Notes: generated by a model not told the origin, from the letters alone. 60,047 nucleotides of DNA from Candidatus Micrarchaeota archaeon (GCA_964467175.1 CAYXNY010000045.1:1-60047), one strand, 5' to 3'; positions 2,002 to 60,047 are shown, counted from the stretch's first letter. Translations and numbers: made by a program.

Positions 2002-3008
2002 TAGGCATAAAAGTAAAAAAAGAAAAAGCAGAAAAAATAAGAAAAAAGCTCATCTCCGAAAATGCGCTTTCGAATGATTTTATTCCTTTTTCAACCGGAG
2101 ATTATGTCTTTTTTCCTTTGAGCAAAGAAGTAAAAATTAAGGATGCGTATATTGTTGATGTAAATTTCAAAAAATCCGTCCGCAGGCCGCGTTCTCTTGA
2201 GGAGGCGCTCGATGAGATGGGAATATACGCAAAGGGAATCCTCTCCTCATTTGATATAATAGGAGATATCGCAATAGTTGAAATCCCGGATGCTTTGAAA
2301 GAAAAAGAAAAGGAAATCGGAGCGGCAATAATGAAGATCCACCCGAATGTTAAAACTGTTCTGAAAAAAGAAGGGCCGATGGCAGGAGAATTTAGGGTAA
2401 GGAAGTTCGGGTTTGTTGCTGGAAAAAGAACAACGAAAACCATCTACAAGGAGAATAATGTGAAGATGCACATGGATGTGGCGAGGGTTTATTTCTCCCC
2501 CCGCCTAAGCTATGAACGGGCAAGGATCGCGAGGAAGGTGAAGAAAAACGAGAAGGTGCTCGCTCTTTTTGCGGGCATAGGGCCATTTCCACTCGTAATA
2601 AAAAAACAAAAACCGGAAACAGAAATTGTTGCGGTAGAGATAAATCCCGAAGCAATTAAATACATGAAAAAAAACATGAAATTAAACAACTTGGATTTTG
2701 AAGTTATTGAGGGGGATGTTGCAAAAGTTCTTAAAGAGAAGAGATTTCAAGGATGGGCTGACAGGATTCTTATGCCCCTTCCAAGAGGGGGGGAGCATTT
2801 TCTAAAAAATGTTTTTGATGCCGCAAAAGACGGAACGATAGTTCATTTCTACACGTTCGCCTCCCTTCCATTTCCGCTGGATGACGCTGAGGATAAAGTT
2901 AAACGGTATCTGCCGGGAAATAGCTATAAAATAATCGAAAAAAGAATAGTCCGGCCTTTCGCGCCGAGAATAGTCCAGGTTGTTCTTGACATCAGAATTA
3001 TTAAATGA
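1998..3008 (+). CDS. trm5: tRNA (guanine37-N1)-methyltransferase, Trm5/Taw22 (Met-10+ like) family
   Basis: 336 aa. SAM-MTase core with the FAGIGPFPL motif typical of Trm5. ATGA overlap with the leuS stop (1998-2001). Confidence 0.8.
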   Translation: MIGIKVKKEKAEKIRKKLISENALSNDFIPFSTGDYVFFPLSKEVKIKDAYIVDVNFKKSVRRPRSLEEALDEMGIYAKGILSSFDIIGDIAIVEIPDALKEKEKEIGAAIMKIHPNVKTVLKKEGPMAGEFRVRKFGFVAGKRTTKTIYKENNVKMHMDVARVYFSPRLSYERARIARKVKKNEKVLALFAGIGPFPLVIKKQKPETEIVAVEINPEAIKYMKKNMKLNNLDFEVIEGDVAKVLKEKRFQGWADRILMPLPRGGEHFLKNVFDAAKDGTIVHFYTFASLPFPLDDAEDKVKRYLPGNSYKIIEKRIVRPFAPRIVQVVLDIRIIK

Positions 3009-3864
3009 AATAATTTACTGCTGCAACTCCATAAGCGACCAAATATGCGAGCGCAATTCCCAATGTTATGGGTGGAATTGCCGGAATTGTTTTTCTCTGC
3101 GTATAAAGGATGAATATCATAATCCAGAAGCCGACCAGCGCTCCTATAAATCCGGTCAGCATTGCACTCACTCCTATTTTGTATGCAGCAACCTCAACCA
3201 TTATTGGGGCAAGAAAATCGCCGGTTCCTATATCTATCCTTTCCTTTTTCGGCTTTCCTTCTACAATCACAGTTCTCTCCTGAGAAACAGTAAACGCCAC
3301 ATCCCTTTTTATTATTTCATTGGCCATCGTAACCATGTGTTTTGTTCTGAAAACGGCTATGTAATCGTAGATTGCCAGGAGAAGCAAAAAAAGAAAGGCG
3401 GCTCCGAGCGAAAGCGAAAATCCGAAAACAGCGCCCGCCCCTGCGGTTGCTACAACCGCGACAAAGTTTTTCCATTTTTTCGTAACCATCCTCGCGGTTC
3501 CCACCGCCAGCCCGCAGAGAACAGAGCCAGCCATCGCAGTTTCAACCTGCAAGAACGGCCGGACAAAAGAATACACGACTATTGAAGTTGCCATGGAAAT
3601 GATTCCAAACTCGATCAACCTGAAAAGCAGTTCCCCCTTGTAAAATTTTATAAGGACGAGCATGACTGCAGCGCCGATGAGAATGTAGAGCATCACCTGG
3701 AGCGAAGCGAGCGGAGACTGCCCCTCTTCAACGATTTTCATCTCCCTTATTACTTCATTTGTTTTCGCATCCTCGGTAATGAATGCGCCCGCGTACATCC
3801 CCAAAATCTGCGCAACAACGAAAAGAAGAAACACCCTTTTTATCAAACTAACCCCTTTCCGCAA
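3001..3864 (-). CDS. Presenilin/signal-peptide-peptidase-like GxGD intramembrane aspartyl protease (archaeal PSH type)
   Basis: Polytopic 287 aa. YD motif (LLAIYDYIAV), GxGD motif (IGTGDFLAP) and a PAL-like motif (PAIPPI) occur in the expected order. Confidence 0.75.
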   Translation of the reverse strand: MRKGVSLIKRVFLLFVVAQILGMYAGAFITEDAKTNEVIREMKIVEEGQSPLASLQVMLYILIGAAVMLVLIKFYKGELLFRLIEFGIISMATSIVVYSFVRPFLQVETAMAGSVLCGLAVGTARMVTKKWKNFVAVVATAGAGAVFGFSLSLGAAFLFLLLLAIYDYIAVFRTKHMVTMANEIIKRDVAFTVSQERTVIVEGKPKKERIDIGTGDFLAPIMVEVAAYKIGVSAMLTGFIGALVGFWIMIFILYTQRKTIPAIPPITLGIALAYLVAYGVAAVNYFI

Positions 3865-5896
3865 GCTTCACATGCCCCTGCTTCGGGCGGTAGATCACTC
3901 CTTTCCTTTCCAGCTCCTCAACTATCTTATCAACCTTGTATCTGTCAATTTCGTATCTCTCAGCTTCTTCATAGATGAGCTCAACCCCTACTTCATCGAA
4001 TTTTGAATTCAGCTCCCTTATTATCTCAAGCACCGTAGCTGCTTTTTCCCTTTCGGAATGGCTCCTTCCGGTGCTTATTATGTCCACATCCAGCTTCCCG
4101 GTTTCCCTGTCCATCATCGCCTGCTCCATCATGTATTTCATCAGATCTATCGCGGCTTGCGCATCCTTTTTCTCAACATCGTTGCTGAGCCTCATCTTTG
4201 CGTTTGCCTCCGCAAGCCTTATCAGCCCCTCAAGATACCGGGGCGTTATTGCAACGCTTCCCTGCTTCTGGCCCATCCCCCTCAGCTCAACATAAAATTC
4301 CTTTATCAAATCCGCGGCTTCCTTTGTAAGCTTCGGCCGTATGTTCCTCCTTGCATATGCGATATATTTTCTTAACAGCTCGGTTTCTATGGGCGGGCTT
4401 GCCATCTCCTCCGTCTGCATGGATTCCATGTGCAGTCTCAGGATGTGGCTTGCGAGCTTCTCATCCTTTGCGGTGTCAAGCACATCTATTATTGGGAAAA
4501 GAAGGTCGAACCTCGAAAGAAGGGACGGAGGGACGTCAAACTGCTCTGGAATGTTTTTCGTCTGCTGGAACCTCCCGAACCTAGGGTTCGCGGCCGCGAT
4601 TATTGCTGTTTTCGCCTTGAACCGGGCGACTATTCCGGCCTTTGCCACGCTTACTGTCTGGCTTTCCATCACTTCATGCAGCGCCCCCCGGTCGTCCTCG
4701 TTTATCTTGTCAAACTCATCTATCGCGGCTAGCCCGCCGCTTGCGAGAACAAGCGCTCCTGCCTTCAGCGTCCAGCCGCCTTCTCCCAGCTCGTCCTTTT
4801 CTGCGCTCGCGGTAAGCCCGACTCCCGACACACTTTTTCCGCTTACATATATGCTTTTCGGCGCTATCTTGTCAACCTGCAGCAAGAATCTCGTTTTCGC
4901 AATTCCAGGGTCGCCGACGAGCAGGATGTGGATATCATCCCTTATATGCGCGCCGCTTTTTGTAAGTTTGTCCTTAGTTCCCCCAAAAAGTTGCAGCGCG
5001 ATTCCTTTTTTGATTTCAGTGTACCCGTATATATCCGGGGCAACAGAGCTCACTATCCTCTCTTCGATATCCGGCATGCTCGCGAGTTCGAGTATTTTTT
5101 TCTCATCCTCCTTGCTTATATCCACCTCTTCAAAATCTTTCTGCAACGGCTTTATGTGAACTGTGTCAAGGTATCTTGAGAATATAAGCTCCCTCTTTCC
5201 GGTAGTTTTCAGCGGAGGCATCAGCCTCAGTATTCCGGTTATTTCTATATTCTGCCCCGGGACAACAGAATTCACCAGGTCATCCTCCATGACTATATGG
5301 AGCTTCGCGGCCGGCGTACCGCTCCTCACCCTCTCCAGCAGGTCTTGAATCTCCGCCCTCTGCAGGTCCACAAACTTGCTCTCATCTATCATCTGGCTGA
5401 GGCTTCCCTTTTTGCACAGAGGACATCTGCCCGGAGGGGCGAAGTCCCTTGTGACATGGAACCTGAATATCTCATCGCACGCCTGGCATTTGTAAACAGC
5501 CACGCTTACCTTATGCATCACTTCCGCCCTTCTTGTGATGATCCCTTTGAAGGTAATCAGCTTGTTTATGCTATTGGAATCTATCTGCTCTATGAGCATG
5601 TCGCTTTCTGGAAGGTTGTAAAACCGAACATGGGGCGCGAACTTCATTTCTGTTGGGAGGGCGAACTCCATTTCCTGTATCTTTTCCTCAGCCGCCTTTA
5701 TCGTGCTGTCCGGCTCGTTTATCAGAAAGTCCGCGAGCGCAGGGTCGTATTTTTCAACATCCCGGTAGTCTATTTCAAGGCTTCGCTTTCCGGGGTAGGT
5801 TGAGAGGAGCCGGTTTATCTGCTCCTTGTATTTCTTTATAGAATAGAGCTCTTCGAATGCATTCTTTATGTTTGTCAGGTCAAGTTCCTCTGCCAT
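3848..5896 (-). CDS. mcm: MCM replicative helicase
   Basis: 682 aa. Zn-finger CQAC...CPLC, Walker A LLVGDPGIAKT, Walker B IDEFDK, arginine finger SRFDL and a C-terminal winged helix. No intein-sized insertion. Confidence 0.95.
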   Translation of the reverse strand: MAEELDLTNIKNAFEELYSIKKYKEQINRLLSTYPGKRSLEIDYRDVEKYDPALADFLINEPDSTIKAAEEKIQEMEFALPTEMKFAPHVRFYNLPESDMLIEQIDSNSINKLITFKGIITRRAEVMHKVSVAVYKCQACDEIFRFHVTRDFAPPGRCPLCKKGSLSQMIDESKFVDLQRAEIQDLLERVRSGTPAAKLHIVMEDDLVNSVVPGQNIEITGILRLMPPLKTTGKRELIFSRYLDTVHIKPLQKDFEEVDISKEDEKKILELASMPDIEERIVSSVAPDIYGYTEIKKGIALQLFGGTKDKLTKSGAHIRDDIHILLVGDPGIAKTRFLLQVDKIAPKSIYVSGKSVSGVGLTASAEKDELGEGGWTLKAGALVLASGGLAAIDEFDKINEDDRGALHEVMESQTVSVAKAGIVARFKAKTAIIAAANPRFGRFQQTKNIPEQFDVPPSLLSRFDLLFPIIDVLDTAKDEKLASHILRLHMESMQTEEMASPPIETELLRKYIAYARRNIRPKLTKEAADLIKEFYVELRGMGQKQGSVAITPRYLEGLIRLAEANAKMRLSNDVEKKDAQAAIDLMKYMMEQAMMDRETGKLDVDIISTGRSHSEREKAATVLEIIRELNSKFDEVGVELIYEEAERYEIDRYKVDKIVEELERKGVIYRPKQGHVKLAERG

Positions 5897-9497: not shown

Positions 9498-9527
9498 AAG
9501 AAGAGCGAGCGTACAAGTTTAGATATA
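9498..9527 (-). other. 3' half of 23S rRNA processing stem
   Basis: gaagaagagcgagcgtacaagtttagatat is the inverted complement of 12705..12736 (helices gaagagcgagc/gctcgctcttc and aagttta.gatat/atatc.taaactt) with an unpaired centre. This is the usual archaeal pre-rRNA processing helix. Confidence 0.6.
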
Positions 9528-9530
9528 TTG

Positions 9531-12704
<3,174 letters not shown>

Positions 12705-12736
12705 ATATCCTTAAACTTCTGATATGCTCGCTCTTC
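12705..12736 (-). other. 5' half of 23S rRNA processing stem
   Basis: Inverted complement of 9498..9527 (see that feature). Confidence 0.6.
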
Positions 12737-20806: not shown

Positions 20807-20949
20807 GGGCCTGTAGCTCAGCTTGGATAGAGCGACAGCCTTCTAATAAAGAAGGCCAGAGGAAAAACCTCGGCGGTTGCTGGAGGTAAGATAGGAACCG
20901 CCGGAGGTTCCTGCGCTGAAGGTCGTGGGTTCAAATCCCACCAGGCCCG
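20807..20949 (+). tRNA. tRNA-Arg(TCT) with ~68-nt intron at/next to anticodon loop
   Basis: Hand-folded. Acceptor gggcctg/caggccc, D arm gctc-agcttggata-gagc, anticodon stem acagc/gctga (27:43 A-A), loop cttcta(a) with TCT at 20842-20844, and T arm gtggg-ttcaaat-cccac. There are 75 nt between the anticodon stem strands (7 loop plus 68 intron). No encoded CCA. Confidence 0.85.
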
Positions 20950-42960: not shown

Positions 42961-43063
42961 TCCCGTCGGGCGGACTTGAACCACCAACCTGCCGGTTCCC
43001 ACAGGTGCATTTACGCTGTGCTGAAATCTACAGCCGGCCGCTCTACCGTTGAGCTACGACGGG
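42961..43063 (-). tRNA. tRNA-Tyr(GTA) with 31-nt anticodon-loop intron
   Basis: Minus strand: cccgtcg-ta-gctc-aacggta-gagc-g-gccgg-ctgtag[31 nt]a-ccggc-aggtt-ggtgg-ttcaagt-ccgcc-cgacggg-a. The C1:G72 pair is the archaeal/eukaryal Tyr identity element. Confidence 0.85.
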
Positions 43064-49080: not shown

Positions 49081-51729
49081 GTGGAAATTTATACTATCGA
49101 GAAAGAAAAAGTTTATGCTGCGCTGAAAACTGCTCCGGACGGCCTGAGCCAGAGCGAGGCAGAAAACAGGCTGTTGAAATACGGACTGAACAAAATAGCC
49201 GAAGAAAAAAAAATCCCGCTTTTTTTGTTGTTTCTGGAGCAGTTCAAATCCCCGCTTATACTCCTGTTACTTTTTGCGATTGCAATATCGGCTTTTGTTG
49301 GGGAGGTTGTTGACGCAGTTATCATAGGGGTTATTATTGTATATGCGTCGGTGTTGGGGTTTGTGCAGGAATACAGGGCAGAGAAGGCGATGGAGGAGCT
49401 GAAAAAACTCTCGGCGCCGAAAGCAAAGGTGATTAGGGATGGAAGTATTGTTGTTGTTGATGCTGAAAAAATAGTTCCCGGAGATGTTCTGTTCCTTGAA
49501 GAAGGCGACAGGATCGTTGCTGACGCAAGGGTCGCGGAGGGATTTGAGCTCAGAATCGATGAAGCGTCCCTCACAGGCGAATCGACGCCAGTCCAAAAAA
49601 ATTCTGATGCCCTAAAAGGAAAGGTCCCGGTTGCCGAAAGAACCAATATTGTTTTTTCAGGCACGACCGTAGTGGCGGGGCACGGAAAGGCCGTTGTGTA
49701 CGCAACAGGCATGGAAACAGAATTCGGAAAGGTTGCGAGGATGCTTCAGGAGGAGGAAAGGCCAAAAACACCCCTTGAGATAAAGATGCATGAAATCGGA
49801 AACTTACTCGGCATAGTGGTGCTAGCAATTGTTTCCATAGTTGCGGGGCTTGAGTTTCTTACAAGAGGCGGGGACCCCCTAACGGTTTTTATATGGGCGG
49901 TTGCCCTCGCGGTTGCAGCGGTTCCTGTTACGCTTCCGGCGGTAGTGACAACCTCCCTCGCTCTTGGGATGTACAAAATGTCGAAAAAAAACGCAATAGT
50001 CAGAAAACTTGACGCCGTTGAAGCGCTGGGCTCGGTCAATGTAATCTGCACAGACAAGACAGGAACCATTACTAAAAATGAAATGACCGTGAAGGAAATA
50101 TTCGTCCTTTCTGGGGAGTATTTTTTAGAAGGCGTAGGATACAAGCCAGAGGGAAAAATTCTGCAAAACAACAGAGTTGTCGACTCGTCCTCAGAAAGCG
50201 CAAGACCGCTGTACCTCGCTCTTAAAATAGGTGCACTGTGCAACAACGCGTTTTTGATTAAAGAAAAAAACGAATGGAAGATACACGGCGACCCGACGGA
50301 AGGCGCGCTTCTCGTTTCAGCGGCCAAAGCCGGCTTTTTTAAGGAAGAGCTTGAGAAGAGCGAAGAAAGAATATCCGAGATTCCTTTTTCTTCAGAAAGA
50401 AAGATGATGAGCACGATAAACAAAAATGGAAAAAAATATTTCCTCTACTCAAAAGGCTCTCCGGAAACTGTTCTGTCCAAATGCAGATATGTTCTTGTTG
50501 ATGGAAAGAAAAAGCCCTTAACAAAAAAAATCAAGGAAGAGATTTTGAAGCAGAACAAGAAAATGGCTTCCAGCGCCCTGCGCGTTCTTGCGATGGCGTA
50601 CAGGGAAGTAGGCAAAAAACAGAAATACGATGAAAAGGATGAGAAAGACCTTGTTTTTGTCGGCATGCAGGGCATGATAGACCCTCCGAGGCCTGAGGTT
50701 AAGGACGCGATAGCCGTTTGCAAAGAAGCAGGGATAAAAGTGATCATGGTTACCGGAGACCAGAAAGGGACGGCCGAGGCTGTGGCCCGGCAGATAGGTT
50801 TGGAAGGGAAGGTGTATGACGGCAAAGAGCTTGACGAAATTAAAATAGAGGATATTGTTGATGAAGCCGCGGTATTTGCGAGGGTTTCTCCTGAGCAAAA
50901 ACTTCGCATTGTCAAGGCCTTGAAGGCAAAAGGATATGTCGTCGCAGTGACCGGAGACGGAATAAACGATGCGCCCGCTCTTAAAACTGCGGATGTTGGA
51001 GTGGCCATGGGAATAACCGGCACCGATGTGACAAAAGAGGCCGGGGCGATCGTTCTCGCGGACGACAATTTTGCAACAATAGTGAGCGCTGTGGAAGAGG
51101 GGAGAGGAATATACGAGAATATAAGAAAATTCCTATTTTTTCTTCTCTCATGCAATGTAGCCGAGGTTGCCTTGGCGTTTCTCGCTGTTGTTTTCGGGCT
51201 TCCCCTTCCGCTTCTTGCGATCCACCTCCTCTACATAAACCTTGCGACAGACGGACTTCCGGCAATGGCCCTTGGCGTTGAGCCCTCTGAGAAGGATATA
51301 ATGAAAAGAAAGCCTAGGATGAAGAGCGAGAGCATTTTCCACAGGATGAAGGTTCCTCTACTGTTGTTCTCCCTCTACCTGACGCTTTCGCTTTTCGCAA
51401 TTTTTTCGTTTTCCCTTCCTTATGGGCTGGAAAATGCAAGAACCCTTGTGCTTGTTGCGATGATTTTTGCCGAGCTCGCGAACGCATTCAACGCAAAATC
51501 GATCGAAAAGTCCTTGTTCAAAATAAACATATTTAATAATAAATGGCTCATCCTTGCAATAATATGGGAGATCTTGCTAATCTTGTTCTTCGTATCAACA
51601 GAATTCTCGGCCTTCCTAAAAATAGTGCCTCTATCAGCAGCTGATTTGGTTCTGCCTGTTTTCGTCGGGGTTTGTGCGATAGCATTCATGGAAATAACAA
51701 AATTTTTCATTTTTCGTAGCTCCTCATGA
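49081..51729 (+). CDS. P-type (P2, Ca2+/cation) transporting ATPase
   Basis: 882 aa. TGES, phosphorylation site CTDKTGTITKN, MVTGDQ and VTGDGINDAPALK motifs, with about 10 TM. GTG start as listed. Confidence 0.9.
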   Translation: MEIYTIEKEKVYAALKTAPDGLSQSEAENRLLKYGLNKIAEEKKIPLFLLFLEQFKSPLILLLLFAIAISAFVGEVVDAVIIGVIIVYASVLGFVQEYRAEKAMEELKKLSAPKAKVIRDGSIVVVDAEKIVPGDVLFLEEGDRIVADARVAEGFELRIDEASLTGESTPVQKNSDALKGKVPVAERTNIVFSGTTVVAGHGKAVVYATGMETEFGKVARMLQEEERPKTPLEIKMHEIGNLLGIVVLAIVSIVAGLEFLTRGGDPLTVFIWAVALAVAAVPVTLPAVVTTSLALGMYKMSKKNAIVRKLDAVEALGSVNVICTDKTGTITKNEMTVKEIFVLSGEYFLEGVGYKPEGKILQNNRVVDSSSESARPLYLALKIGALCNNAFLIKEKNEWKIHGDPTEGALLVSAAKAGFFKEELEKSEERISEIPFSSERKMMSTINKNGKKYFLYSKGSPETVLSKCRYVLVDGKKKPLTKKIKEEILKQNKKMASSALRVLAMAYREVGKKQKYDEKDEKDLVFVGMQGMIDPPRPEVKDAIAVCKEAGIKVIMVTGDQKGTAEAVARQIGLEGKVYDGKELDEIKIEDIVDEAAVFARVSPEQKLRIVKALKAKGYVVAVTGDGINDAPALKTADVGVAMGITGTDVTKEAGAIVLADDNFATIVSAVEEGRGIYENIRKFLFFLLSCNVAEVALAFLAVVFGLPLPLLAIHLLYINLATDGLPAMALGVEPSEKDIMKRKPRMKSESIFHRMKVPLLLFSLYLTLSLFAIFSFSLPYGLENARTLVLVAMIFAELANAFNAKSIEKSLFKINIFNNKWLILAIIWEILLILFFVSTEFSAFLKIVPLSAADLVLPVFVGVCAIAFMEITKFFIFRSSS

Positions 51730-52177
51730 ATAGAATGGATAGCGGAAGAATTGAAAAAATAAATACTGCGGCAGGGCATGTGTGTTTGTATGCCTCCTTT
51801 GGATTGAGAAGGCTCTGCTGTCTCAGCTCTTCCTGTTGCACGCTTTTTTCGCACAATTCTTTTACGTTTGAAATTGGCCATCCCTGGGGAATGTTGTAGT
51901 GCTCTTCTACGTTGCTGCAAATATTCTTATCCAGCATTGTCCTTGCAACCTCTATTATGCAGGTGTTGTACTCAAGGTCCTGCATCGTTATGCTTATATC
52001 CGGATCTTTAATTATCTCTCTACATGTGCTTACCGCTTGTTTTTTGTCTCCTATGAGAGCATAATAAACTGCCGTTTTTTTGTAGCATTCAGGCCTCCCG
52101 CTACAATTTCCTATTGCTATGCAGCCCGCGAGCAAAAGAAGGGCCGCCAAAATAAGCGCTATTGCTGTTGCACGCAT
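51707..52177 (-). CDS. Cys-rich putative lipoprotein with C-terminal TM
   Basis: Trimmed to MRATAIALILAALLLLAGC (lipobox-like). 156 aa with 9-10 Cys. Divergent from the paralog operon. Confidence 0.45.
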   Translation of the reverse strand: MRATAIALILAALLLLAGCIAIGNCSGRPECYKKTAVYYALIGDKKQAVSTCREIIKDPDISITMQDLEYNTCIIEVARTMLDKNICSNVEEHYNIPQGWPISNVKELCEKSVQQEELRQQSLLNPKEAYKHTCPAAVFIFSILPLSILFMRSYEK

Positions 52178-52200
52178 AGTCAATTTACACAAAACAATCA

Positions 52201-52210
52201 TTTTAAATAT
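52201..52210 (+). promoter_or_regulatory. TATA-like box upstream of the membrane-protein operon
   Basis: ttttaaatat is centred ~25 nt upstream of the ATG at 52231, in a 53-nt divergent intergenic region. The spacing would give a leaderless or very short-leader mRNA. Confidence 0.35.
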
Positions 52211-52230
52211 TGTTGTTCTAAGAAATAACG

Positions 52231-53403
52231 ATGCCGGCAATACCAACCCTTAACGACTATCTTTCTGTTGCCATGCCGTTTATAGCCGTAGCTTTTGGCA
52301 TCCATGTTTTATACGCTGCTTTGCATTACATGTGGGGGAATTTCATGAACAGCCCTCAGGCATATGCGCGTGGAAAGGAGGAGGTTCTCTCCCTCCTTAG
52401 GACAATAGGCATATTCGTCTCCGTTATTGTCTTATACAATCTTATTATTCTTGGTTTGGGCATAGATTTTATTTCGCTGGCAAAACTTTCTGTAAAAAGT
52501 TTTTTCTGGATGCTTTTGGACAGATACTTGGAAATAATGGGATTTGATTTTGCCCTTGGCAGTATTTCACAAACTGGCATCTTTGTGTTCATCCAAGCCG
52601 AGTACGGGTCGATAGAAATAGGCGGCTCTCCTGTTGTTGGGCTTTCAAACACCCTCACTGTTCTTCACAAGACTCTTGAGCCCCTTCAATATGGTCTGAC
52701 GCTTGCGGCGGGAAGGTACGCCCTCCTTGACTTCGCGCCGGCAGGCATGCTCTATCTCATGCCGCTTGGTTTTTTCCTTAGAGCCTTCCCGTTCACAAGA
52801 AAGACGGGCTCTAGCATAGTCGCTTTAGCAATAACGGTTTTTTTTGTCTATCCGCTTTCTGTTCTTTTTACAGATTATCTGGTCACCGCATATGAAAGTC
52901 AAAAAATGATTTCGCCAACTCTTCCAAAAAACACCCTCATAACTACAGAGACCGATGAAGAAGTTTTCTCAGATTTTGTTGGATATTTAGGCAAAAATGT
53001 ATCCCAAGGGCAGAATGACTACATCCCGCCCGGCGAAACAACCTCTGTAAGCGGCAGTAAAGGACTGTGGGATAGATTCACTCAATGGCTGGGAAATGTT
53101 TTTAATATTGCTGCGTGGGTCAGCAACCTTAGCGAGGGCTTTGCAAATATACTAAGGCTTGCCGGCTCTACTTTAAAGATGCTAGTCACGTTCGGCACGC
53201 CTCTGACCAGCCCAGTAGGATGGGTCCTTCCAACCCTCTTGATTTCTTTAAAGTGGGTTTCCATAATTGCAGAGCAGATTGCAATAATATTTACAATATT
53301 TGTGCTTGAGATTACGATAAGCATCACCATGTACAGGAATATCGCGATGCTCATAGGAGGAGAGCTCAGGATATTCGGCATTACAAAGGTGACAGGAGGA
53401 TGA
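52231..53403 (+). CDS. Polytopic membrane protein, paralog 1 of 6 (LRxFPPTRxxG family, unassigned)
   Basis: 390 aa with multiple TM segments. Signature LRAFPFTRKTG at 52777-52809. C-terminal tail GELRIFGITKVTGG. ATGA overlap with paralog 2. Confidence 0.75.
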   Translation: MPAIPTLNDYLSVAMPFIAVAFGIHVLYAALHYMWGNFMNSPQAYARGKEEVLSLLRTIGIFVSVIVLYNLIILGLGIDFISLAKLSVKSFFWMLLDRYLEIMGFDFALGSISQTGIFVFIQAEYGSIEIGGSPVVGLSNTLTVLHKTLEPLQYGLTLAAGRYALLDFAPAGMLYLMPLGFFLRAFPFTRKTGSSIVALAITVFFVYPLSVLFTDYLVTAYESQKMISPTLPKNTLITTETDEEVFSDFVGYLGKNVSQGQNDYIPPGETTSVSGSKGLWDRFTQWLGNVFNIAAWVSNLSEGFANILRLAGSTLKMLVTFGTPLTSPVGWVLPTLLISLKWVSIIAEQIAIIFTIFVLEITISITMYRNIAMLIGGELRIFGITKVTGG

Positions 53404-54278
53404 ACCCATTAATCTTCGTTGCAATCGGCATCATGATTTCTGTTATCTCCTTAGCGTTTATGTTCGCGAGCTTTGCAAAAAAGCCAGAATGGGAGGCATG
53501 GGCAAAGGTTGAGCTCTACGAGCTTGCTTGGGGAATCATCCTTCTTATAGTTATATATGGAATATACAATACAGTAAGCTTTATCGCGGATTCCTATATA
53601 GGCACAAACATAATAAACTACTCTGAGAACAGGCTGAACGATGTGGTGAAGGACCGCCTTCTCCCGGCCTTCATTCAACTGACCTACTTGGACCATAATG
53701 TTATTTTTTGGAGCCAGTTCAAGCATAGGTTCGGTCCCTCTGCCTGGGGAATAACCTTTAGGCTTTATCCAGGCCTTGAAATATACTCCCAGCCGGTAAG
53801 GATTTTAGAGTTTGGATACATGGCCGCGTTTGCAAGCCTTTCTGTCCAAATTATGCTTTTCCACATCCTTAATGTTATTACAGATGTTTTGATCGCTGCA
53901 GGCCTTCTCTTAAGGTTTTTCCCACCAACAAGGACAAGTGGTAACCTTCTCATAGCCCTTGGTTTTTCCTTTAAAGTAATATTCCCTCTTATGTACATTC
54001 TATCTTTCCAGGCGCTTGATGAAATATACAAAATCCATGGATGGAGCATGTCTGGTGTTTGGCAAACAGCCTATATCCCGCAGTTGATAGGCACAACGAT
54101 GCCGATGGTTATTACGCTTACTCCGGGTTTGTTCCATTCTCTTTTGAACAACTTCGGCCATCTTTCTGTTGAGATTCTCGTAATTCCCTCAGCGGCTATG
54201 ACCGTTGCTATCTCAGCAACGACCGGCCTGCAAAAGGCGCTTGAGTGGAAAACAATAGAGCTGGGTGGTTGGAGATGA
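53400..54278 (+). CDS. Polytopic membrane protein, paralog 2 of 6
   Basis: 292 aa. N-terminal TM plus KVELYEL. Signature LRFFPPTRTSG at 53910-53942. ATGA overlaps on both sides. Confidence 0.75.
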   Translation: MNPLIFVAIGIMISVISLAFMFASFAKKPEWEAWAKVELYELAWGIILLIVIYGIYNTVSFIADSYIGTNIINYSENRLNDVVKDRLLPAFIQLTYLDHNVIFWSQFKHRFGPSAWGITFRLYPGLEIYSQPVRILEFGYMAAFASLSVQIMLFHILNVITDVLIAAGLLLRFFPPTRTSGNLLIALGFSFKVIFPLMYILSFQALDEIYKIHGWSMSGVWQTAYIPQLIGTTMPMVITLTPGLFHSLLNNFGHLSVEILVIPSAAMTVAISATTGLQKALEWKTIELGGWR

Positions 54279-55531
54279 TTTCTGTTCCTCTTGAATTTGT
54301 ACCTTTTGCGATAATCGGCGCAGCATTCGGCATCTCCATTTTCCTTTCTTCCATTGCATACATGGTAGGCGTTGCTCTAAGCGATGAAAGGATAAAGGGA
54401 TGGGCAAGGTTTGAGGTGTACGAAATATTCTACTCTGCGGTTCTTGGTGTTTTGATCGCATCCTCATGGGCGGTTATGATAGGGCTGAGCGATGAGATTG
54501 CAAAATCTCTAGACCCGCGGGGTTATCTTTTTGCCTTGGGTGGGATGGATAATGAGCCGATCTTCCTCACCATGGCTCAGACCTACATGCGCGAGATATA
54601 CGGCGAGATTGCGTATCTGTATACCGAGATTTCGAAGGTTACTTCTGTAACCATGTTCCTTGATAGCATAAGCTATACTGTGATTGCAGCCCAGCTTGAA
54701 GATTTTGGCGGAAGCATAGGCTTTAGCCTCTGCCCTCTTTTTTTTGGCCCCTTCAACTTCCTCATGAGCAACATTACAGAAATGCTGATAAGGGTTGGCC
54801 TGATTACTGTATTCCAGGCAGCCATTCTTGCTTTCATAAAGTCCGTGATGCCGGCATTTATCGGCGTTGGTTTTGCGCTCAGAATACTCGGTCCGACCAG
54901 AAAGCTCGGAGGCCTCATGATGGCCATGGGGCTTATGCTCTACTTTGTCTTTCCAATGTTCTATGTTTTTGGAAGCGGAATATACCACTCCCTTGAGCCT
55001 GCTGAGAAGTTTGCCGGCATGAGGATTGCGAAGTTCAACTCCTACTTCGGAACGATTAGCATATTTGGAAATAGTTTGGAGTACGATAAGGAGTTTGATG
55101 AGAAATTTGGGGTTTATGAGGAATACATAAAAAGCGGAAAACTGGAGGAGATGAATACGCAAGAGCTTGAGGCTGGCATAGGCCAGAATCTTCAAGAAAT
55201 AAACAGAGAATTTTCCGGCTTTGACATTTCAATCCCCGGAGCTATGAGGGTGATTCTTGACTACCTTCTCTCTGTCCCAGAACTGCTTGGAAACCTTGTC
55301 TGCATTTCAAGGGTCAGCGCGCAGGCATGGAACTATGGCCTCCTTTCTCCTTTAGTCTATGATAACAAAGTGTTTATCTCAGAGATAATGTTTGAGATGC
55401 TTGCGAACCTCCTGTTTTTCACAACAGTTTTTTCTTTCATGGCGCTCATGGCAGTGATTGCCGGAACAAAAGGCCTTTCCCCGCTGCTCGGAGGGGATGT
55501 TGAGATCGCTGGGCTTACGCACTTTATATGA
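54275..55531 (+). CDS. Polytopic membrane protein, paralog 3 of 6
   Basis: Start set to the ATG at 54275 (ATGA overlap), 418 aa. RFEVYEI after TM1. Signature LRILGPTRKLG at 54878-54910. Tail GGDVEIAGLTHFI. Confidence 0.75.
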   Translation: MISVPLEFVPFAIIGAAFGISIFLSSIAYMVGVALSDERIKGWARFEVYEIFYSAVLGVLIASSWAVMIGLSDEIAKSLDPRGYLFALGGMDNEPIFLTMAQTYMREIYGEIAYLYTEISKVTSVTMFLDSISYTVIAAQLEDFGGSIGFSLCPLFFGPFNFLMSNITEMLIRVGLITVFQAAILAFIKSVMPAFIGVGFALRILGPTRKLGGLMMAMGLMLYFVFPMFYVFGSGIYHSLEPAEKFAGMRIAKFNSYFGTISIFGNSLEYDKEFDEKFGVYEEYIKSGKLEEMNTQELEAGIGQNLQEINREFSGFDISIPGAMRVILDYLLSVPELLGNLVCISRVSAQAWNYGLLSPLVYDNKVFISEIMFEMLANLLFFTTVFSFMALMAVIAGTKGLSPLLGGDVEIAGLTHFI

Positions 55532-55541
55532 GGTAGAAAAC

Positions 55542-56705
55542 ATGGATAAGAGAATGATTTTTGTGCTTTTTGCCTTTGTTCTCCTCATTCCACCAGCTCA
55601 TTCCCAGCAGATTTCTTCTAATGGTTCTGTTCCCGACATTTCGCAACTCGAACAGCTCACTTCTGAAGAAACGATTCAAAAAATGGTAGATGCCACCACA
55701 CGACTCGGAAAATGTGAAGAACCGAAAGACATTTTGGATGTGTTCGGCCTTTCCTACCTCGCTATGGTTGTTGTAATATTTTTCTACACCGCTGCCTATC
55801 TAGGTGGGAAGCTTTTCAACTACCCCGTTACAGACGCGCTTCTAAGGATAAAGATAGACGAGGTTGCAACAACAGTTTTCATAATCTTTGCTGTAAGCTT
55901 TCTTTACGCTTTTGTAAACTCCTCTCCACAGGGATACTACTATCTTAATGAAGCAATCGAGTACAATCAGAAGATTCTTAAGCACGTCCTTGGCAACATA
56001 GGTATTTTCACTATTTTTTCAACTATCATATACCTTCTCTACGGTCTTACAGTATACATTCCTATTGTTCCGGGCATGCCCCTCATAAAGTTTACGATAA
56101 GCATCGGCCCTGCGCTCAAGCCCATTGTAGATATGATATTCCAAAGCTCCAACATGCTTGCCGTTATTGTTATAGAATGGACGACGATGCACGCTATTCT
56201 ATGCATGATAAAAACATGGTGGCTCAGCTTTATTCTTCCGCTCGGGGTTTTGTTCAGAAGCCTGTCAATAACAAAGGATGCTGGAAATACATTGATAGCC
56301 TTGGCCATAGGGATGTATTTTCTCTACCCTATTCTTATGACCATGAACTATGATATATATGAAATGCAGATAGGAAAGGCGGCAACATCGGGCATTACAA
56401 ACTTTGACCTTTTCTTCGGGCAGGTCAAAAATTTTTTCTTTGGCGAGCCCCCGACACTAGTAATCGGCTTTGTCATAGCCGTTCTTGTTGCCATATACAC
56501 AAAGGGCGCGTTTGCAATTGCCGCCGCCCTAGCTTATCTTCTTTGGCTCCTTCAAAACACCCTCCTGGATACAGTATTCCTTATCTTTATCATAAGCATG
56601 TTTCTTCCTGCCCTGAATGTATTCATAACGCTTACATTCGTCATGGAGCTTGGAAAGCTTTTGGGAACGGATATAAATGTATCTGCGCTTACGAAAATAA
56701 TATGA
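55542..56705 (+). CDS. Polytopic membrane protein, paralog 4 of 6 (with extra signal-peptide-like N-terminus)
   Basis: Start set to MDKRMIFVLFAFVLLIPPAHS, with GAGGT 8 nt upstream, 387 aa. RIKIDEV after the family TM1. Degenerate signature FRSLSITKDAG at 56253-56285. Tail GTDINVSALTKII. Confidence 0.7.
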   Translation: MDKRMIFVLFAFVLLIPPAHSQQISSNGSVPDISQLEQLTSEETIQKMVDATTRLGKCEEPKDILDVFGLSYLAMVVVIFFYTAAYLGGKLFNYPVTDALLRIKIDEVATTVFIIFAVSFLYAFVNSSPQGYYYLNEAIEYNQKILKHVLGNIGIFTIFSTIIYLLYGLTVYIPIVPGMPLIKFTISIGPALKPIVDMIFQSSNMLAVIVIEWTTMHAILCMIKTWWLSFILPLGVLFRSLSITKDAGNTLIALAIGMYFLYPILMTMNYDIYEMQIGKAATSGITNFDLFFGQVKNFFFGEPPTLVIGFVIAVLVAIYTKGAFAIAAALAYLLWLLQNTLLDTVFLIFIISMFLPALNVFITLTFVMELGKLLGTDINVSALTKII

Positions 56706-56714
56706 GGTGCGAGA

Positions 56715-57812
56715 ATGATTATGCTTGCTGTTGGCCTTCCTGTTCTTCCGCCGCCTGAACCAGCCGTGCTCACCGCCTGCAATCCTCCGAACATTGATTT
56801 TCTCGGCCTCTCCTTCCTCGCCCTTTTTGTTTCCTCATTGTATATCCTATTTTTCTATTTCTGGGGAAAGCTTACGAGCAATCCAAATACAGATGTTTGG
56901 GTGAAAGGAGAAATTTATGAAATAGGCGCAACTGCTTTCATAGTTCTTTTGTTCCTTCCGCTCTTTCTAAATGTTGCCTGCGCTTTTAAACTAGGCGATT
57001 ACAACATATTCAAAACCGCATCCGTTTACCTAGAGTCTCTAAAAGCAAGCATAACTATAGTAATGGATGCTTTGGCCGGAGGGTATGCCGTAGTGGACAT
57101 GATTGCTTCTATATCAATAAAGGCTCATCCTTTTGGTTTAGGTCTTTCAGCGAATGATGTTGGCGCCGGGATTGTTGCCCTTTGGAAGCCCGTCATCCTT
57201 CAGATAACCAATGCGTTAACCCTCGGCTATATATTCGCATCTGCTCAAACAGTAATTCTCGAGTATTTTACATACGGCATGATAACAAAAATCCTTCCGC
57301 TTGGCGTTCTCCTGAGAAGCTTCACTCCGACAAGAAGGGTCGGGGGGATGCTTCTTGGCCTTTCTCTCGGCCTTCTCTTCCTCTATCCGCTTGTTCTCAC
57401 CCTCAACTACTTCCTTGTTAAGGATTATCTTGTTGTTTCCTGGAATCAAAAATCAAATAAATGGGAACTAGATGAGGGCTTTAAAACCGTTCTTGCGGAT
57501 ATTGGAAAATCAACAATTCCCCTTGACTCGAACGATAGTTCTTGGAGAAACTTCTTCCGCATCGCAGGAGAAGTTGTTTCCATCTTGGGTTCAATAGCGT
57601 TTATATTTACAAGCGGGGTTTGGTTTGTTTTGCTGGCCTGGGGCATTATTATTATTGTTTGGGGCGCGGTTATCGCTGGCGCCTACCTTGGTGTTGTTGC
57701 AGGCATAATACTGCCCGCGATAAATACAGTTATATTAATACAAGGAGTGAGATACTTTACGTACCTGTTTGGAGAAGAGCTTGACATTACAACTTTGACG
57801 AGGATGGTATGA
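56715..57812 (+). CDS. Polytopic membrane protein, paralog 5 of 6
   Basis: 365 aa with GAGGTG upstream. GLSFLAL...GKLTSNPNTDVWVKGEIYEI aligns with paralog 4. Signature LRSFTPTRRVG at 57312-57344. Tail GEELDITTLTRMV. Confidence 0.75.
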   Translation: MIMLAVGLPVLPPPEPAVLTACNPPNIDFLGLSFLALFVSSLYILFFYFWGKLTSNPNTDVWVKGEIYEIGATAFIVLLFLPLFLNVACAFKLGDYNIFKTASVYLESLKASITIVMDALAGGYAVVDMIASISIKAHPFGLGLSANDVGAGIVALWKPVILQITNALTLGYIFASAQTVILEYFTYGMITKILPLGVLLRSFTPTRRVGGMLLGLSLGLLFLYPLVLTLNYFLVKDYLVVSWNQKSNKWELDEGFKTVLADIGKSTIPLDSNDSSWRNFFRIAGEVVSILGSIAFIFTSGVWFVLLAWGIIIIVWGAVIAGAYLGVVAGIILPAINTVILIQGVRYFTYLFGEELDITTLTRMV

Positions 57813-58774
57813 TGGAATTTTGGGAAGGATGGGAAGCGGTTTGTTTGCTCATTTCCGTTATCAGCGTTATAGGAACAGCCATTCTGATTATGGCTGCAAA
57901 GCTTTTCAGCTTAAAGGAGCTTGAGCAGGGTGCAAAGGCAGAGCTCACCTTTGCCATATCCACCGTGTTTATTGTGCTCTTCCTTGTTCTGGCAGTTAAT
58001 TTTGCAGATTCCCTCGCAACAGAGTTTGCTAAGGAAAGTTCAAAAATAATATTCGGCAGAGAAATGCACGCAAACAATTTCTGGGAGGTGTCCAAGCTGT
58101 ACATGAATAACATCTATGAGTGCTATCTAATTTCTGAAAAGATTCTTGTTTCGATAGATGCAGGTGTATCCACAATAGCCAGGCTCAATTTTTCAGCGCT
58201 AATGTTTGATCCTATCGGAGCTTACACTTTTGGAATGATGCACGAGTTTATTGCGAACATTCTTGGCCTGTTATACTATTTCAAATGGGGGTACAAGCTT
58301 ATGATAAAAACCGTTGATTTCTTTTTTTACATAGGCTTTCCCATACTTTTTCCCACAGGTGTCGCTCTCCGCGCATTCCCGCCAACGCGCGGCACCGGCG
58401 CCTACATCATGGCGTTTTCAATAGGCATATACTTTATTTTTCCTATCGCATACCTTCTTGCAATCGGCGTTATGCAGTCACCCTTTTTCTGCCCAACTTT
58501 CTTCCTTAAGTTTGTTCCACTCCTTCTGGACCCGTGCGAAACAGAAGATATAAATATATTTGGCCTAGCTTTCTCTTGGGTTATGGGTAATTTAGAATTC
58601 ATAAATGTATTTTTTAAAGAGTTCATCCCGGGCCTTTTGAGAGAGGTTTGCCTCAATCTGTGCATCTTTCCCTTTGTTGCCCTAATGATAACCTTTTCCT
58701 TTGTAAATTCCGGCTCAAGCCTTTTCGGCGCAAACATTCCAGAGGTGGGAAGGGGGCTCGTGAAGCTGATATAA
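57809..58774 (+). CDS. Polytopic membrane protein, paralog 6 of 6
   Basis: 321 aa. ATGA overlap with paralog 5. Signature LRAFPPTRGTG at 58367-58399. Tail GANIPEVGRGLVKLI. Confidence 0.75.
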   Translation: MMEFWEGWEAVCLLISVISVIGTAILIMAAKLFSLKELEQGAKAELTFAISTVFIVLFLVLAVNFADSLATEFAKESSKIIFGREMHANNFWEVSKLYMNNIYECYLISEKILVSIDAGVSTIARLNFSALMFDPIGAYTFGMMHEFIANILGLLYYFKWGYKLMIKTVDFFFYIGFPILFPTGVALRAFPPTRGTGAYIMAFSIGIYFIFPIAYLLAIGVMQSPFFCPTFFLKFVPLLLDPCETEDINIFGLAFSWVMGNLEFINVFFKEFIPGLLREVCLNLCIFPFVALMITFSFVNSGSSLFGANIPEVGRGLVKLI

Positions 58775-58829
58775 AAATAATAAGGTTTTTAATTCCTTAT
58801 AAGCACAAAATTAATGTATGGAAAAATCC

Positions 58830-60047
58830 ATGAAGCTTTGCGTTCTACTCCTCCTTCTTTTCACCCAGCTTTCCTACTCTGCCGGTGAAAAATACACGTC
58901 TATAGTTGTTTCTAAGCAGGTGGATGAATCAAACGGCACAATTTTCCTGAACATCACAGTGCTTTACTTCAACACATCGAAGATAGAAATTCCTCAAGGG
59001 CCAGGCCAACCTCCGAAAATAGTGGAGCAGACAAACATAAGCTCTGTTGAGAACGCAACAGTGTACATTTCATTCTACAATACCTCCTACAGCGAGGAAG
59101 GAAAACCTGTACAAACCCTTGTTCCTCTTCCCTGCTCCCCCATTTTAACAAACAAAAGCTATGAAGAGGACGGCAAGGTTGTTTATTTTGGCGAATGCAC
59201 CATAGAAGGAGAGTTGTACTCAAAATACTTCAACAACACGTGCAGAGGGATTCATTTTTACTTTCCTGGAATTTCTCTCCCTACCGAGTCCATCCCACCA
59301 ACAGAAACAACCGTTGATGTTTGCACGGGAAAACCGACTATTTTTGAAGCGTTGAGAGGGATACTCGCGACCGCCATAAATCCAGAAGACCCGTTTTGCA
59401 TCTCCATGTTTATAATATTTGGCCTTCTTCTTGCCACGCTGTTTTTTACAGGAAGGTCTCCGCTTGCCCTTTTGGACATGGTAACGCCCATGCTTCCCAA
59501 GCCGAGGAGGTTTGCTTATACAGCCGGGATGCATACCATTGGACACAAGAAGATGAAGGAAGATGCGGCCAAGGTAATATCCGCACTCGATAAACAAATA
59601 AAGGAAAAAGAAAAGGAAGTTAAAGAAGCCCTAGCTGATCTTCGTTCGCTGTACGATAAAGCAGAACCATGGAAAAAATTGCTCGCGCTTAAGGCTCTTG
59701 AGGAGGGCAATATACCATTGGCTGAAAGGCTTCTCAAAAGCAACAGCCCGTTCAGTATTGCCACTCTTCACTTTGAAAAAGACGATCCATATCTGGTAAA
59801 AGCCCGGGAATACCTTCTTATGAGAAAAATGTTGGATGCTTATGATGAGATGCAAAGGGTTTCGAAGAATAAATATGTTAATAAGGTTCTGAAATGGATG
59901 GGAAAACAGTATCTGCTCATGGAGATACCCGCGGCGCTTCAGGCAACGGCTATGGCATCTAGGTTTGTAAAAAGAGTTGTCAAGGCACCATTTGTTAGGT
60001 ACGGAGAGCTAAAACGCGCAAAAGCTGTTGAAAGGGCAGCGACACCG
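58830..60047 (+). CDS. Signal-peptide, N-glycosylation-sequon-rich surface protein with one TM and helical cytoplasmic domain (3' end beyond window)
   Basis: Not in the supplied ORF track because no stop is reached. I translated it by hand from the ATG at 58830 (MKLCVLLLLLFTQLSYSAGEKYTS...) and the frame stays open to 60047 (405+ codons). Seven N-x-S/T sequons and 5 Cys lie in the first ~170 aa, followed by the TM FCISMFIIFGLLLATLFF and a K/E-rich helical region. Confidence 0.65.
   Translation, partial: MKLCVLLLLLFTQLSYSAGEKYTSIVVSKQVDESNGTIFLNITVLYFNTSKIEIPQGPGQPPKIVEQTNISSVENATVYISFYNTSYSEEGKPVQTLVPLPCSPILTNKSYEEDGKVVYFGECTIEGELYSKYFNNTCRGIHFYFPGISLPTESIPPTETTVDVCTGKPTIFEALRGILATAINPEDPFCISMFIIFGLLLATLFFTGRSPLALLDMVTPMLPKPRRFAYTAGMHTIGHKKMKEDAAKVISALDKQIKEKEKEVKEALADLRSLYDKAEPWKKLLALKALEEGNIPLAERLLKSNSPFSIATLHFEKDDPYLVKAREYLLMRKMLDAYDEMQRVSKNKYVNKVLKWMGKQYLLMEIPAALQATAMASRFVKRVVKAPFVRYGELKRAKAVERAATP

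Follow-up and report, generated by a model that had tools for sequence, protein, structure and literature searches.

Six tandem paralogous membrane proteins conserved across Micrarchaeota: candidate subunits of an envelope complex

A stretch of 60,047 nt from Candidatus Micrarchaeota archaeon (GCA_964467175.1 CAYXNY010000045.1:1-60047), called the window below and analysed at its full length, carries a tandem array of six same-strand genes for paralogous polytopic membrane proteins; we named them A to F in gene order. All six copies, and the order in which they stand, were found again in distantly related archaea. The overall best explanation, to which we would give about an even chance, is that A-F are six subunits of a hetero-oligomeric membrane complex that belongs to no named family and acts as a portal or a base in the cell envelope. 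All coordinates are in the whole-stretch numbering of the window and are collected in Table 1. The nearest named relatives of the window proteins come from metagenome-assembled genomes (MAGs) of 'Candidatus Anstonellales' and 'Candidatus Micrarchaeia'; the source of the window is a DPANN archaeon of the Micrarchaeota (Anstonellales), a phylum named Microcaldota at NCBI.

Similarity between the six proteins is modest, with identity within the array of ~20-25%. Proteins D and E match over full length (BLASTP E-value 2.7e-11); other pairs produce E-values of 1e-4 to 1e-7, mostly around a central motif. Paralogy, weak in such pairwise comparisons, is unambiguous at the level of sequence profiles: an exhaustive search of 1.84 billion cluster representatives with the six-paralogue profile matched 2,762 proteins at E<=1e-3, of which 1,812 also reached E<=1e-10; most of the matches covered the full length. 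An earlier model-made reading of this DNA (the sequence-only reading) had recognised six paralogous polytopic proteins and had named insignificant similarity upon proper alignment as an outcome that would speak against them; the similarity proved to be significant. In the rest of the 60-kb window no further family members were found.

A motif scan for F orthologues, with one genome per GTDB species, confirmed 86 loci in MAGs named Micrarchaeota, Micrarchaeia, Anstonellales, Bilamarchaeaceae and, in few cases, Iainarchaeum (the sister phylum Iainarchaeota in NCBI taxonomy; the Iainarchaeum names of MAGs are taken here as labelled). Six family genes were present in every one of the 83 related loci having complete upstream sequence, and 64 of the 83 could be classified cleanly as A-B-C-D-E-F. 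Shorter arrays were all explained by a contig edge or by selection of open reading frames (ORFs), with gene F being split or frameshifted in one locus, L010; the three most divergent loci still had six genes, which the hidden Markov models of the groups could not name reliably. The array is, therefore, strongly conserved in relatives, where the sequence-only reading had suggested to look.

This conservation extends over large evolutionary distances. Orthologues of A are 77-90% identical in Anstonellales and 25-29% identical in distant Micrarchaeota. In two loci with ~27% identity to the window (L007 and L008) each of the six genes has a different window paralogue as its best match, in collinear order; the E-values are 1e-21 to 1e-48 for the best group versus 1e-5 to 1e-12 for the other groups. 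The 183 proteins that were retrieved sort into six orthogroups. Since distant loci carry the same six orthogroups collinearly, the six-fold duplication is, judging by the sequences, ancient: it predates the radiation of the sampled Micrarchaeota, and the copies and their order have been kept since. Retention of all six copies in fixed order is what one would expect if they were subunits of a single assembly, each of them obligate and none able to replace another; an operon of ~6.5 kb with six co-inherited membrane subunits, whose order is fixed at identity down to ~25%, bears the signature of a core machine of the lineage.

In the window, genes A-F are translationally coupled. Adjacent genes overlap by ATGA at A/B, B/C and E/F; the two gaps are of 10 nt (C/D) and 9 nt (D/E), and in both a GAGGT overlaps the preceding stop codon. 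The starts of C (54275) and D (55542) are internal to longer mechanically called ORFs; the lengths of A-F in orthologous contigs (390/292/418/388/365/321 aa) agree with the starts that were chosen. The six ORFs, the three overlaps and the two ~10-nt gaps with GAGGT thus stand as they had first been read from the sequence. Gene packing in relatives is as tight as in the window. The TATA-like element TTTAAATA sits ~26 nt before the ATG of A, which suggests that the array transcript starting at A is a leaderless operon mRNA.

Three parts had been said to be shared by all six proteins. The central one, a mid-protein loop LRxFPPTRxxG followed by a helix ending in Y/F-P, is indeed common to them; in F its residues R188, R194, G195 and G197 are invariant among 82 F orthologues. 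An acidic segment after the first transmembrane (TM) helix was also found in all six paralogues (the segments had been listed out of gene order). Four of the six, C to F, have the third part, a C-terminal tail LxGxE/DxxxxxLTKxI; A has an altered version of it and B has none.

An AlphaFold2 (AF2) model of F built on 82 orthologues (pLDDT 81.2, pTM 0.75) and a model of E of moderate confidence (pLDDT 66.8) resemble each other: both are all-helical, with helices of 35-75 residues. In the F model helices 36-82, 91-125, 135-189 and 262-305 reach far beyond one membrane crossing. Conserved motifs lie on short KR-rich loops and sequons in long loops. Taken together, hydropathy, the positive-inside rule, sequon positions and the AF2 models predict for each subunit an N-terminus outside, a C-terminus inside and five TM helices, perhaps six in some paralogues. 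Helices TM2, TM3 and TM5 would be prolonged outward as long helices and, along with one extra helix, would make an external bundle of ~5 nm. Conservation is highest in three elements: AKxE, which directly follows TM1; a tight turn, G..LRxFPPTRxxG, that connects TM3 to TM4; and a C-terminal amphipathic helix, ...GxxIPExGRGLxKLI. All three would be on the cytoplasmic face. TM4 is Gly/Ala-rich (GAGAYxxAxxxGxYxxxP).

The predicted outside position of the N-terminus agrees with the Sec-type signal-like start of D, which has in addition ~45 extra outside residues, and with a right-handed beta-helix (NosD/Beta_helix) domain of several hundred residues located N-terminal to TM1 in one distant member, P0162 (entry P0162/P0170). 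In two F orthologues, P0113 and P0128, the normal start is preceded by an extra hydrophobic hairpin of two helices. Comparison of hairpin TM1-2 with TM3-4 or with the tail gave no signal of internal duplication.

Database comparisons placed the proteins in no named family, as had been said of them before any search was made. Scans of the seven window proteins (A-F and the gene that follows) against Pfam, NCBIfam and PHROGs returned nothing meaningful, and nothing at all for A-F; there were zero Pfam matches for the six paralogues at E<=1, and no Pfam family was common to 87 diverse family members. The family profile had zero matches among PDB sequences at E<=10, TrwI chains included. Foldseek, run with the E and F models against PDB and with the F model against BFVD, gave a best E-value of 0.07, with none <0.05 and no significant match, and a TM-score never >0.38. 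No published description of the family or of the array was found in the literature. The family, large as it is (>2,700 cluster representatives), is thus undescribed and apparently has a new membrane fold, unrelated to known systems by every test made; a remote link to VirB6 is possible. Among the matches listed (the best 150 of the 2,762 representatives) all members with a source name belong to Micrarchaeota or to Iainarchaeum-labelled MAGs; as far as these sequences tell, the family so far is phylum-specific.

How six such proteins could work together is suggested by the best-documented precedent, the mycobacterial Mce1A-F proteins, six tandem paralogues ~17% identical to each other that form a heterohexamer with one copy of each and with a helical tunnel, in which long helices build a tube across the envelope (PMC9882608). 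Mce1A-F and A-F have a common genetic logic: both are sets of six tandem, collinear and deeply diverged paralogues with long outward helices, and the maintenance of six tandem paralogues that marks an MCE module is seen in A-F as well (ABCDEF in 64/83 loci, the remainder explained). There is, however, no homology: the MCE domain (PF02470) is unmatched in A-F, and the A-F models are all-helical, with no beta-barrel domain. Mce subunits are single-pass, whereas A-F have five predicted TM helices and reside in an archaeon with a single membrane and a surface layer (S-layer). No genes for a YrbE permease or an MceG/MlaF ATPase were found in the array neighbourhoods.

By this analogy, the six subunits would pack side by side in a ring, one copy each and in equal stoichiometry, with the Gly/Ala-rich TM4 serving as the packing helix. 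Beneath the S-layer the outward helices would build a collar, or else a stalk, and the conserved cytoplasmic face together with the C-terminal tails would be a likely docking surface, either for the subunits themselves or for a cytoplasmic partner. We hold such a geometry, a ring or heterohexamer whose helical collar points outward and whose docking face in the cytoplasm is conserved, to be the most economical one, and give it somewhat less than an even chance. The complex would be a passive or partner-driven portal of the envelope, or else a base for surface structures; since neither a catalytic nor a nucleotide-binding signature was recognised and no ATPase is adjacent, it is not seen as an enzyme or as a self-energised transporter. 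The more specific role of a portal, conduit or base in envelope or host-contact biology is favoured over these two, but is itself doubtful.

Tweety proteins (TTYH1-3) were the most frequent Foldseek match in PDB for both models. They likewise have five TM helices with an outside N-terminus and an inside C-terminus, and their extended TM helices make up a bundle outside the cell. However, TM-scores of 0.14-0.25 and E-values >=0.07 are below a fold match (TM>0.5); also, TTYH proteins are eukaryotic, make homodimers and do not occur in paralogue arrays.

The genomes of Micrarchaeota, as those of other DPANN archaea, are tiny and encode few recognisable transporters, and the organisms rely on physical contact with a host. 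Cryo-electron tomography of the cultivated micrarchaeon ARM-1 revealed host nanotubes docked on a barrel-shaped platform in the symbiont envelope, with components unidentified (PMC11329633). One could speculate that A-F make a heterohexameric portal on the symbiont side, for exchange of lipids, metabolites or macromolecules with the host, and maybe the membrane part of the ARM-1 docking platform; we regard this as a long shot. Such a portal, if real, would have no relation to known secretion systems and would represent a new class of conduit between cells. For the membrane part of an ARM-1-like docking platform the array is a candidate only. It provides, at any rate, a concrete and testable candidate set for an apparatus of the Micrarchaeota envelope or host interface.

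Several points weigh against the explanation of A-F as a portal or base complex. The subunits are not equivalent, as B is without the C-terminal tail and the tail of A is altered. The AF2 models are those of monomers of what is probably an obligate oligomer, with E modelled at only moderate confidence. The stoichiometry and the ring geometry are proposed by analogy. Genes for an energy source, for a substrate-binding domain or for a partner are missing from the conserved neighbourhood, and the proposed function is, therefore, essentially reached by elimination. That A-F form one obligate hetero-oligomeric membrane complex is in our view probable, going by the genes and the monomer models. With regard to the range of the family, homologues beyond Micrarchaeota are possible past the best 150 matches; the genome scan relied on exact F-motif patterns and could miss divergent lineages, e.g. 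the cultivated ARM-1, A_DKE and Mia14.

The surroundings of the array are of housekeeping type. Upstream, on the opposite strand, are genes of AspRS/SurE or LeuRS; downstream are PIN_5, RNA ligase and CarS (CDP-archaeol synthase). Within +/-10 kb of ~80 loci the conserved neighbours are tRNA synthetases, SurE, PIN_5, RNA ligase, CarS, SppA, DnaG and pilin-like genes, with zero ATPases among them, and the operon has no Walker-A protein. In the same range, a VirB4/HerA/FtsK-like ATPase, a VirB2-type pilin and other genes of type IV secretion systems (T4SS) or of Ced systems were not seen; the sequence-only reading had proposed to look for such an ATPase and for pilin-like genes. An origin of the array from a mobile element was considered and rejected, since no array copies were found on viral contigs and since the synteny is of housekeeping genes.

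These observations bear on the possibility that A-F are extremely diverged channel subunits of VirB6/TrbL/CedA type, a domesticated and multiplied remnant of a T4SS or of a Ced-like system of DNA/protein translocation; we consider it unlikely. In Rickettsiales, VirB6 genes are amplified into tandem paralogues, and VirB6 of A. tumefaciens has its N-terminus outside, five TM helices with a large loop between TM2 and TM3, and its C-terminus inside. The topology predicted for A-F is the same; both are polytopic membrane subunits (of the inner membrane in VirB6/TrbL) with an outward helical extension. Faint structural matches recur: VirB6-family proteins were in the Foldseek top five for two different paralogue models, TrwI (8rt9_F) for the E model against PDB (rank 5, E-value 0.29, prob 0.60, TM 0.26/0.32) and a TrbL-annotated phage protein for the F model against BFVD (rank 4, E-value 0.53, prob 0.85, TM 0.38/0.35, the best TM listed), both non-significant. 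Two genes past the array, Anstonellales encode a secreted Cys-rich protein with a sub-threshold match to SLT (VirB1-like), described below. The archaeal VirB6 homologues CedA and TedA escape BLAST detection (PMC9905601); given how notoriously divergent they are, VirB6 stays a minority possibility.

Sequence comparison, on the other hand, left the similarity to VirB6/TrbL at null level. TrbL (PF04610) is unmatched in the six paralogues at E<=1 and in the 87 family members at E<=0.01, in line with the lack of PDB sequence matches at E<=10. An hhalign comparison of the family (87 sequences) with an alignment of nine VirB6 proteins, TrwI of plasmid R388 and eight more from plasmids, gave a probability of 0.8% and a score of 20.8, while the reversed control scored 22.2 and block shuffles 19-24; TrwI alone against the family profiles gave probabilities of 0.1-0.2%. 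In the hhalign output LPLGxxLRxFxxTR was paired with GPxFIxxLLFxxTxRF, each being the signature motif of its family; this pairing was rejected as noise, since reversed and block-shuffled controls scored alike or higher. All Foldseek E-values exceeded 0.05, and the better model, that of F, had no TrwI/VirB6 in its PDB top 50. Genes similar to VirB4, VirD4 or VirB2 were unseen within +/-10 kb of ~80 loci; the array, with its six fixed orthogroups, is chromosomal, phylum-wide and off mobile elements. The likeness to VirB6 that the sequence-only reading had offered as an analogy is, therefore, still an analogy, with structure adding the faint TrwI and TrbL matches and sequence adding nothing. A true remote relative of VirB6 would extend the archaeal T4SS-derived repertoire in an unexpected, ATPase-less and six-fold form.

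Pilin-like genes near the array suggest another role, that of a membrane platform or pore for a filament or pseudopilus made of type IV pilin-like proteins; with the evidence at hand this too is unlikely. In ~26-31 loci a block SppA(S49)-cys4-pil6-pil7-pil10-pil8-pil9 is located 2-7 kb downstream of the array; its products are a peptidase of the S49 type (SppA-like), a small membrane protein rich in Cys, and five pilin-like proteins of ~145-530 aa. The N-termini of the five 'pil' families resemble class III signals: [KR]G/A, then Q/F and a hydrophobic helix, with position +5/+6 acidic (e.g. RG/QTSLELLV, KRG/QVATEFLLY and KG/QYFSFDAIIA, the slash following the G). This pattern was seen in 19-26 of 19-26 members per family; it is, though, on such N-terminal patterns that the pilin-like calls are based, and neither Pfam nor NCBIfam had a match for proteins of the block. 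Usually PIN_5, RNA ligase and CarS separate the block from the array, so plain conservation of synteny could explain the proximity. Still, the block adjoins the array in independently rearranged genomes: it is divergent and directly upstream in L014 and L016, and inverted and directly after F in L053 and L065; SppA and cys4 only are found beside the array in L082 (directly upstream) and L036 (two genes downstream). Such adjacency is suggestive of a functional link. The block is, however, absent from the 60-kb window and from +/-10 kb in Anstonellales and in loci L083 and L084. In known type IV filament systems the platform is a PilC/TadC (T2SSF) protein and the ATPase is PilB. Like PilC, TadC and ArlJ, A-F are polytopic and could be a base for pilin-like subunits; in contrast to these systems, the family has no match to the T2SSF domain and no adjacent PilB-type ATPase, and there are six paralogues in place of one platform gene.

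The gene that follows the array in the window, G/H, opens the question of surface proteins. It begins after a 56-nt spacer that has a T5 run and TATA-like elements. The part within the window has a signal peptide, 8 sequons in the first 135 residues and a TM helix at 189-207; after a sequon-rich ectodomain of ~170 aa and the TM helix, a very large basic/acidic region begins. In full-length orthologues (1,516-1,555 aa; e.g. L004:13264-17931) ~1,300 aa come after the TM helix, on its basic side, and this bulk is, going by the charge, probably cytoplasmic. In a stretch of ~1,000 residues no domain was detected; another hydrophobic segment occurs around residue 1257, and the C-terminus has a zinc ribbon, CxxC...CPRC. 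G/H matched nothing in Pfam or PDB, and Walker A is absent from both H and the next protein, I. The sequence-only reading had described a secreted, sequon-rich protein with one TM helix, which is right; its term 'surface glycoprotein-like' suits the first ~190 residues and not the rest.

Protein I (756 aa, ~5% Cys, with a lipobox; L004:17972-20242, orthologues in L009 and L010) has at residues 453-483 in L004 a stretch, AIAQQESGFDE...GMMQV, that resembles positions 3-33 of SLT (PF01464) with 19.7 bits, below the cut-off of 21.3 (E-value 6.5e-4); a phmmer search of PDB gave no lysozyme-like match. A motif of murein-type hydrolases is odd in an archaeon, as peptidoglycan is absent there. G/H and I were rejected as core parts of the complex: they come after the array in only four closely related loci and are, for this reason, lineage-specific additions. 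The inclusion of the seventh gene in the machine, as first proposed, was thus not borne out, the more so as its product is mostly non-surface.

More generally, a variable same-strand slot directly after F is present in 28/84 loci; in several lineages it is filled by the 756-aa I, a 530-aa c30, DUF11 repeat proteins or a 2,791-aa protein with 71 sequons. The last, found in the most divergent Micrarchaeia (L083:11899-20274 and L084:11899-20274), is a lipobox protein with ~71 sequons, 4.9% Cys and weak cupredoxin/plastocyanin-like matches; these bring to mind the S-layer protein of Micrarchaeum harzensis, in which a copper-binding domain has reportedly been predicted. In a marine Micrarchaeota MAG (L066:11617-18518) six same-strand genes occupy the slot, two of them with N-termini that look Cas7/Cas5-like by eye.

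With large Cys-rich proteins of lipobox or surface type in the slot in several lineages, one may think of A-F as a structural anchor or spacer of the envelope, a base within the membrane that would keep the S-layer, or surface proteins of particular lineages, at constant spacing, and not as a conduit. We find this improbable. To our knowledge, S-layer anchors are single-pass stalk proteins and not six polytopic paralogues, which counts against the idea; likewise, the slot contents are heterogeneous and often look cytoplasmic, and the most conserved surfaces of A-F are predicted to be cytoplasmic, unexpectedly for a pure outside anchor. The predicted helical bundle, reaching ~5 nm outward, would fit a spacer, and Micrarchaeota do have an S-layer, the membrane anchoring of which is unresolved (bioRxiv 10.1101/2021.04.28.441871).

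Finally, A-F could be six independent paralogous permeases or channels for different substrates, clustered by descent only; polytopic proteins without soluble domains would suit this, as would the scarcity of recognisable transporters in DPANN genomes (PMC8975820), but it is very improbable, given that one-of-each composition, fixed order and coupling hold across loci sharing ~25-30% identity, unexpectedly for independent transporters, that no transporter family or fold is matched, and that no known transporter architecture combines five TM helices, long helices on the outside and a conserved turn in the cytoplasm.

Table 1. Coordinates of the array genes, their central motifs and accompanying features (in the window, unless a related locus is named)
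Feature	Coordinates	Strand	Remarks
Paralogue A, first gene of the array	52231..53403	+	390 aa
Paralogue B	53400..54278	+	292 aa; ATGA overlap with A; without the C-terminal tail motif
Paralogue C	54275..55531	+	418 aa; ATGA overlap with B
Paralogue D	55542..56705	+	387 aa; GAGGT upstream of ATG
Paralogue E	56715..57812	+	365 aa; GAGGT upstream of ATG
Paralogue F, most conserved subunit	57809..58774	+	321 aa; ATGA overlap with E
Seventh gene G/H, N-terminal 406 codons	58830..60047	+	lineage-specific neighbour, non-core
Central loop motif of A, LRAFPFTRKTG	52777..52809	+	between TM3 and TM4, predicted cytoplasmic
Central loop motif of B, LRFFPPTRTSG	53910..53942	+	
Central loop motif of C, LRILGPTRKLG	54878..54910	+	
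Central loop motif of D, FRSLSITKDAG	56253..56285	+	
Central loop motif of E, LRSFTPTRRVG	57312..57344	+	
Central loop motif of F, LRAFPPTRGTG	58367..58399	+	
Archaeal TATA-box-like element TTTAAATA	52202..52209	+	~26 nt upstream of the ATG of A; read directly from sequence
S49/pilin-like block, examples	L023:13355-18444; L098:14670-19682		~25 other loci

Some other genes around the array deserve mention. A P-type cation ATPase is encoded directly upstream of the array in the window (49081-51729, plus strand); its domains were seen on the orthologues in L001 and L004. A divergent upstream gene for a small lipobox/TPR-like protein (51707-52246, minus strand) is kept only in close Anstonellales relatives; since its mechanical ORF overlaps the start of A by 16 nt, the gene is probably shorter and begins further downstream in its own reading direction. 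In L098 and L099 (both at 2941-4077) an IS605 OrfB / Cas12f-like TnpB gene is present between LeuRS and the start of the array; this insertion, on a metagenomic contig of 1.37 Mb, leaves the array intact.

As to RNA genes, a gene for archaeal large subunit (LSU) rRNA occupies positions 9521-12707 of the minus strand; with 3,187 nt compared to the 2,987 positions of the model, it may have an insertion. A mechanical ORF at 10293-10817, inside this gene, is probably spurious. As no small subunit rRNA was found in the 60-kb window, the rRNA genes appear to be unlinked. Two tRNA matches, at 20807-20949 (plus strand, 143 nt) and 42961-43063 (minus strand, 103 nt), far exceed the length of a mature tRNA and are, therefore, probably intron-containing tRNA genes.

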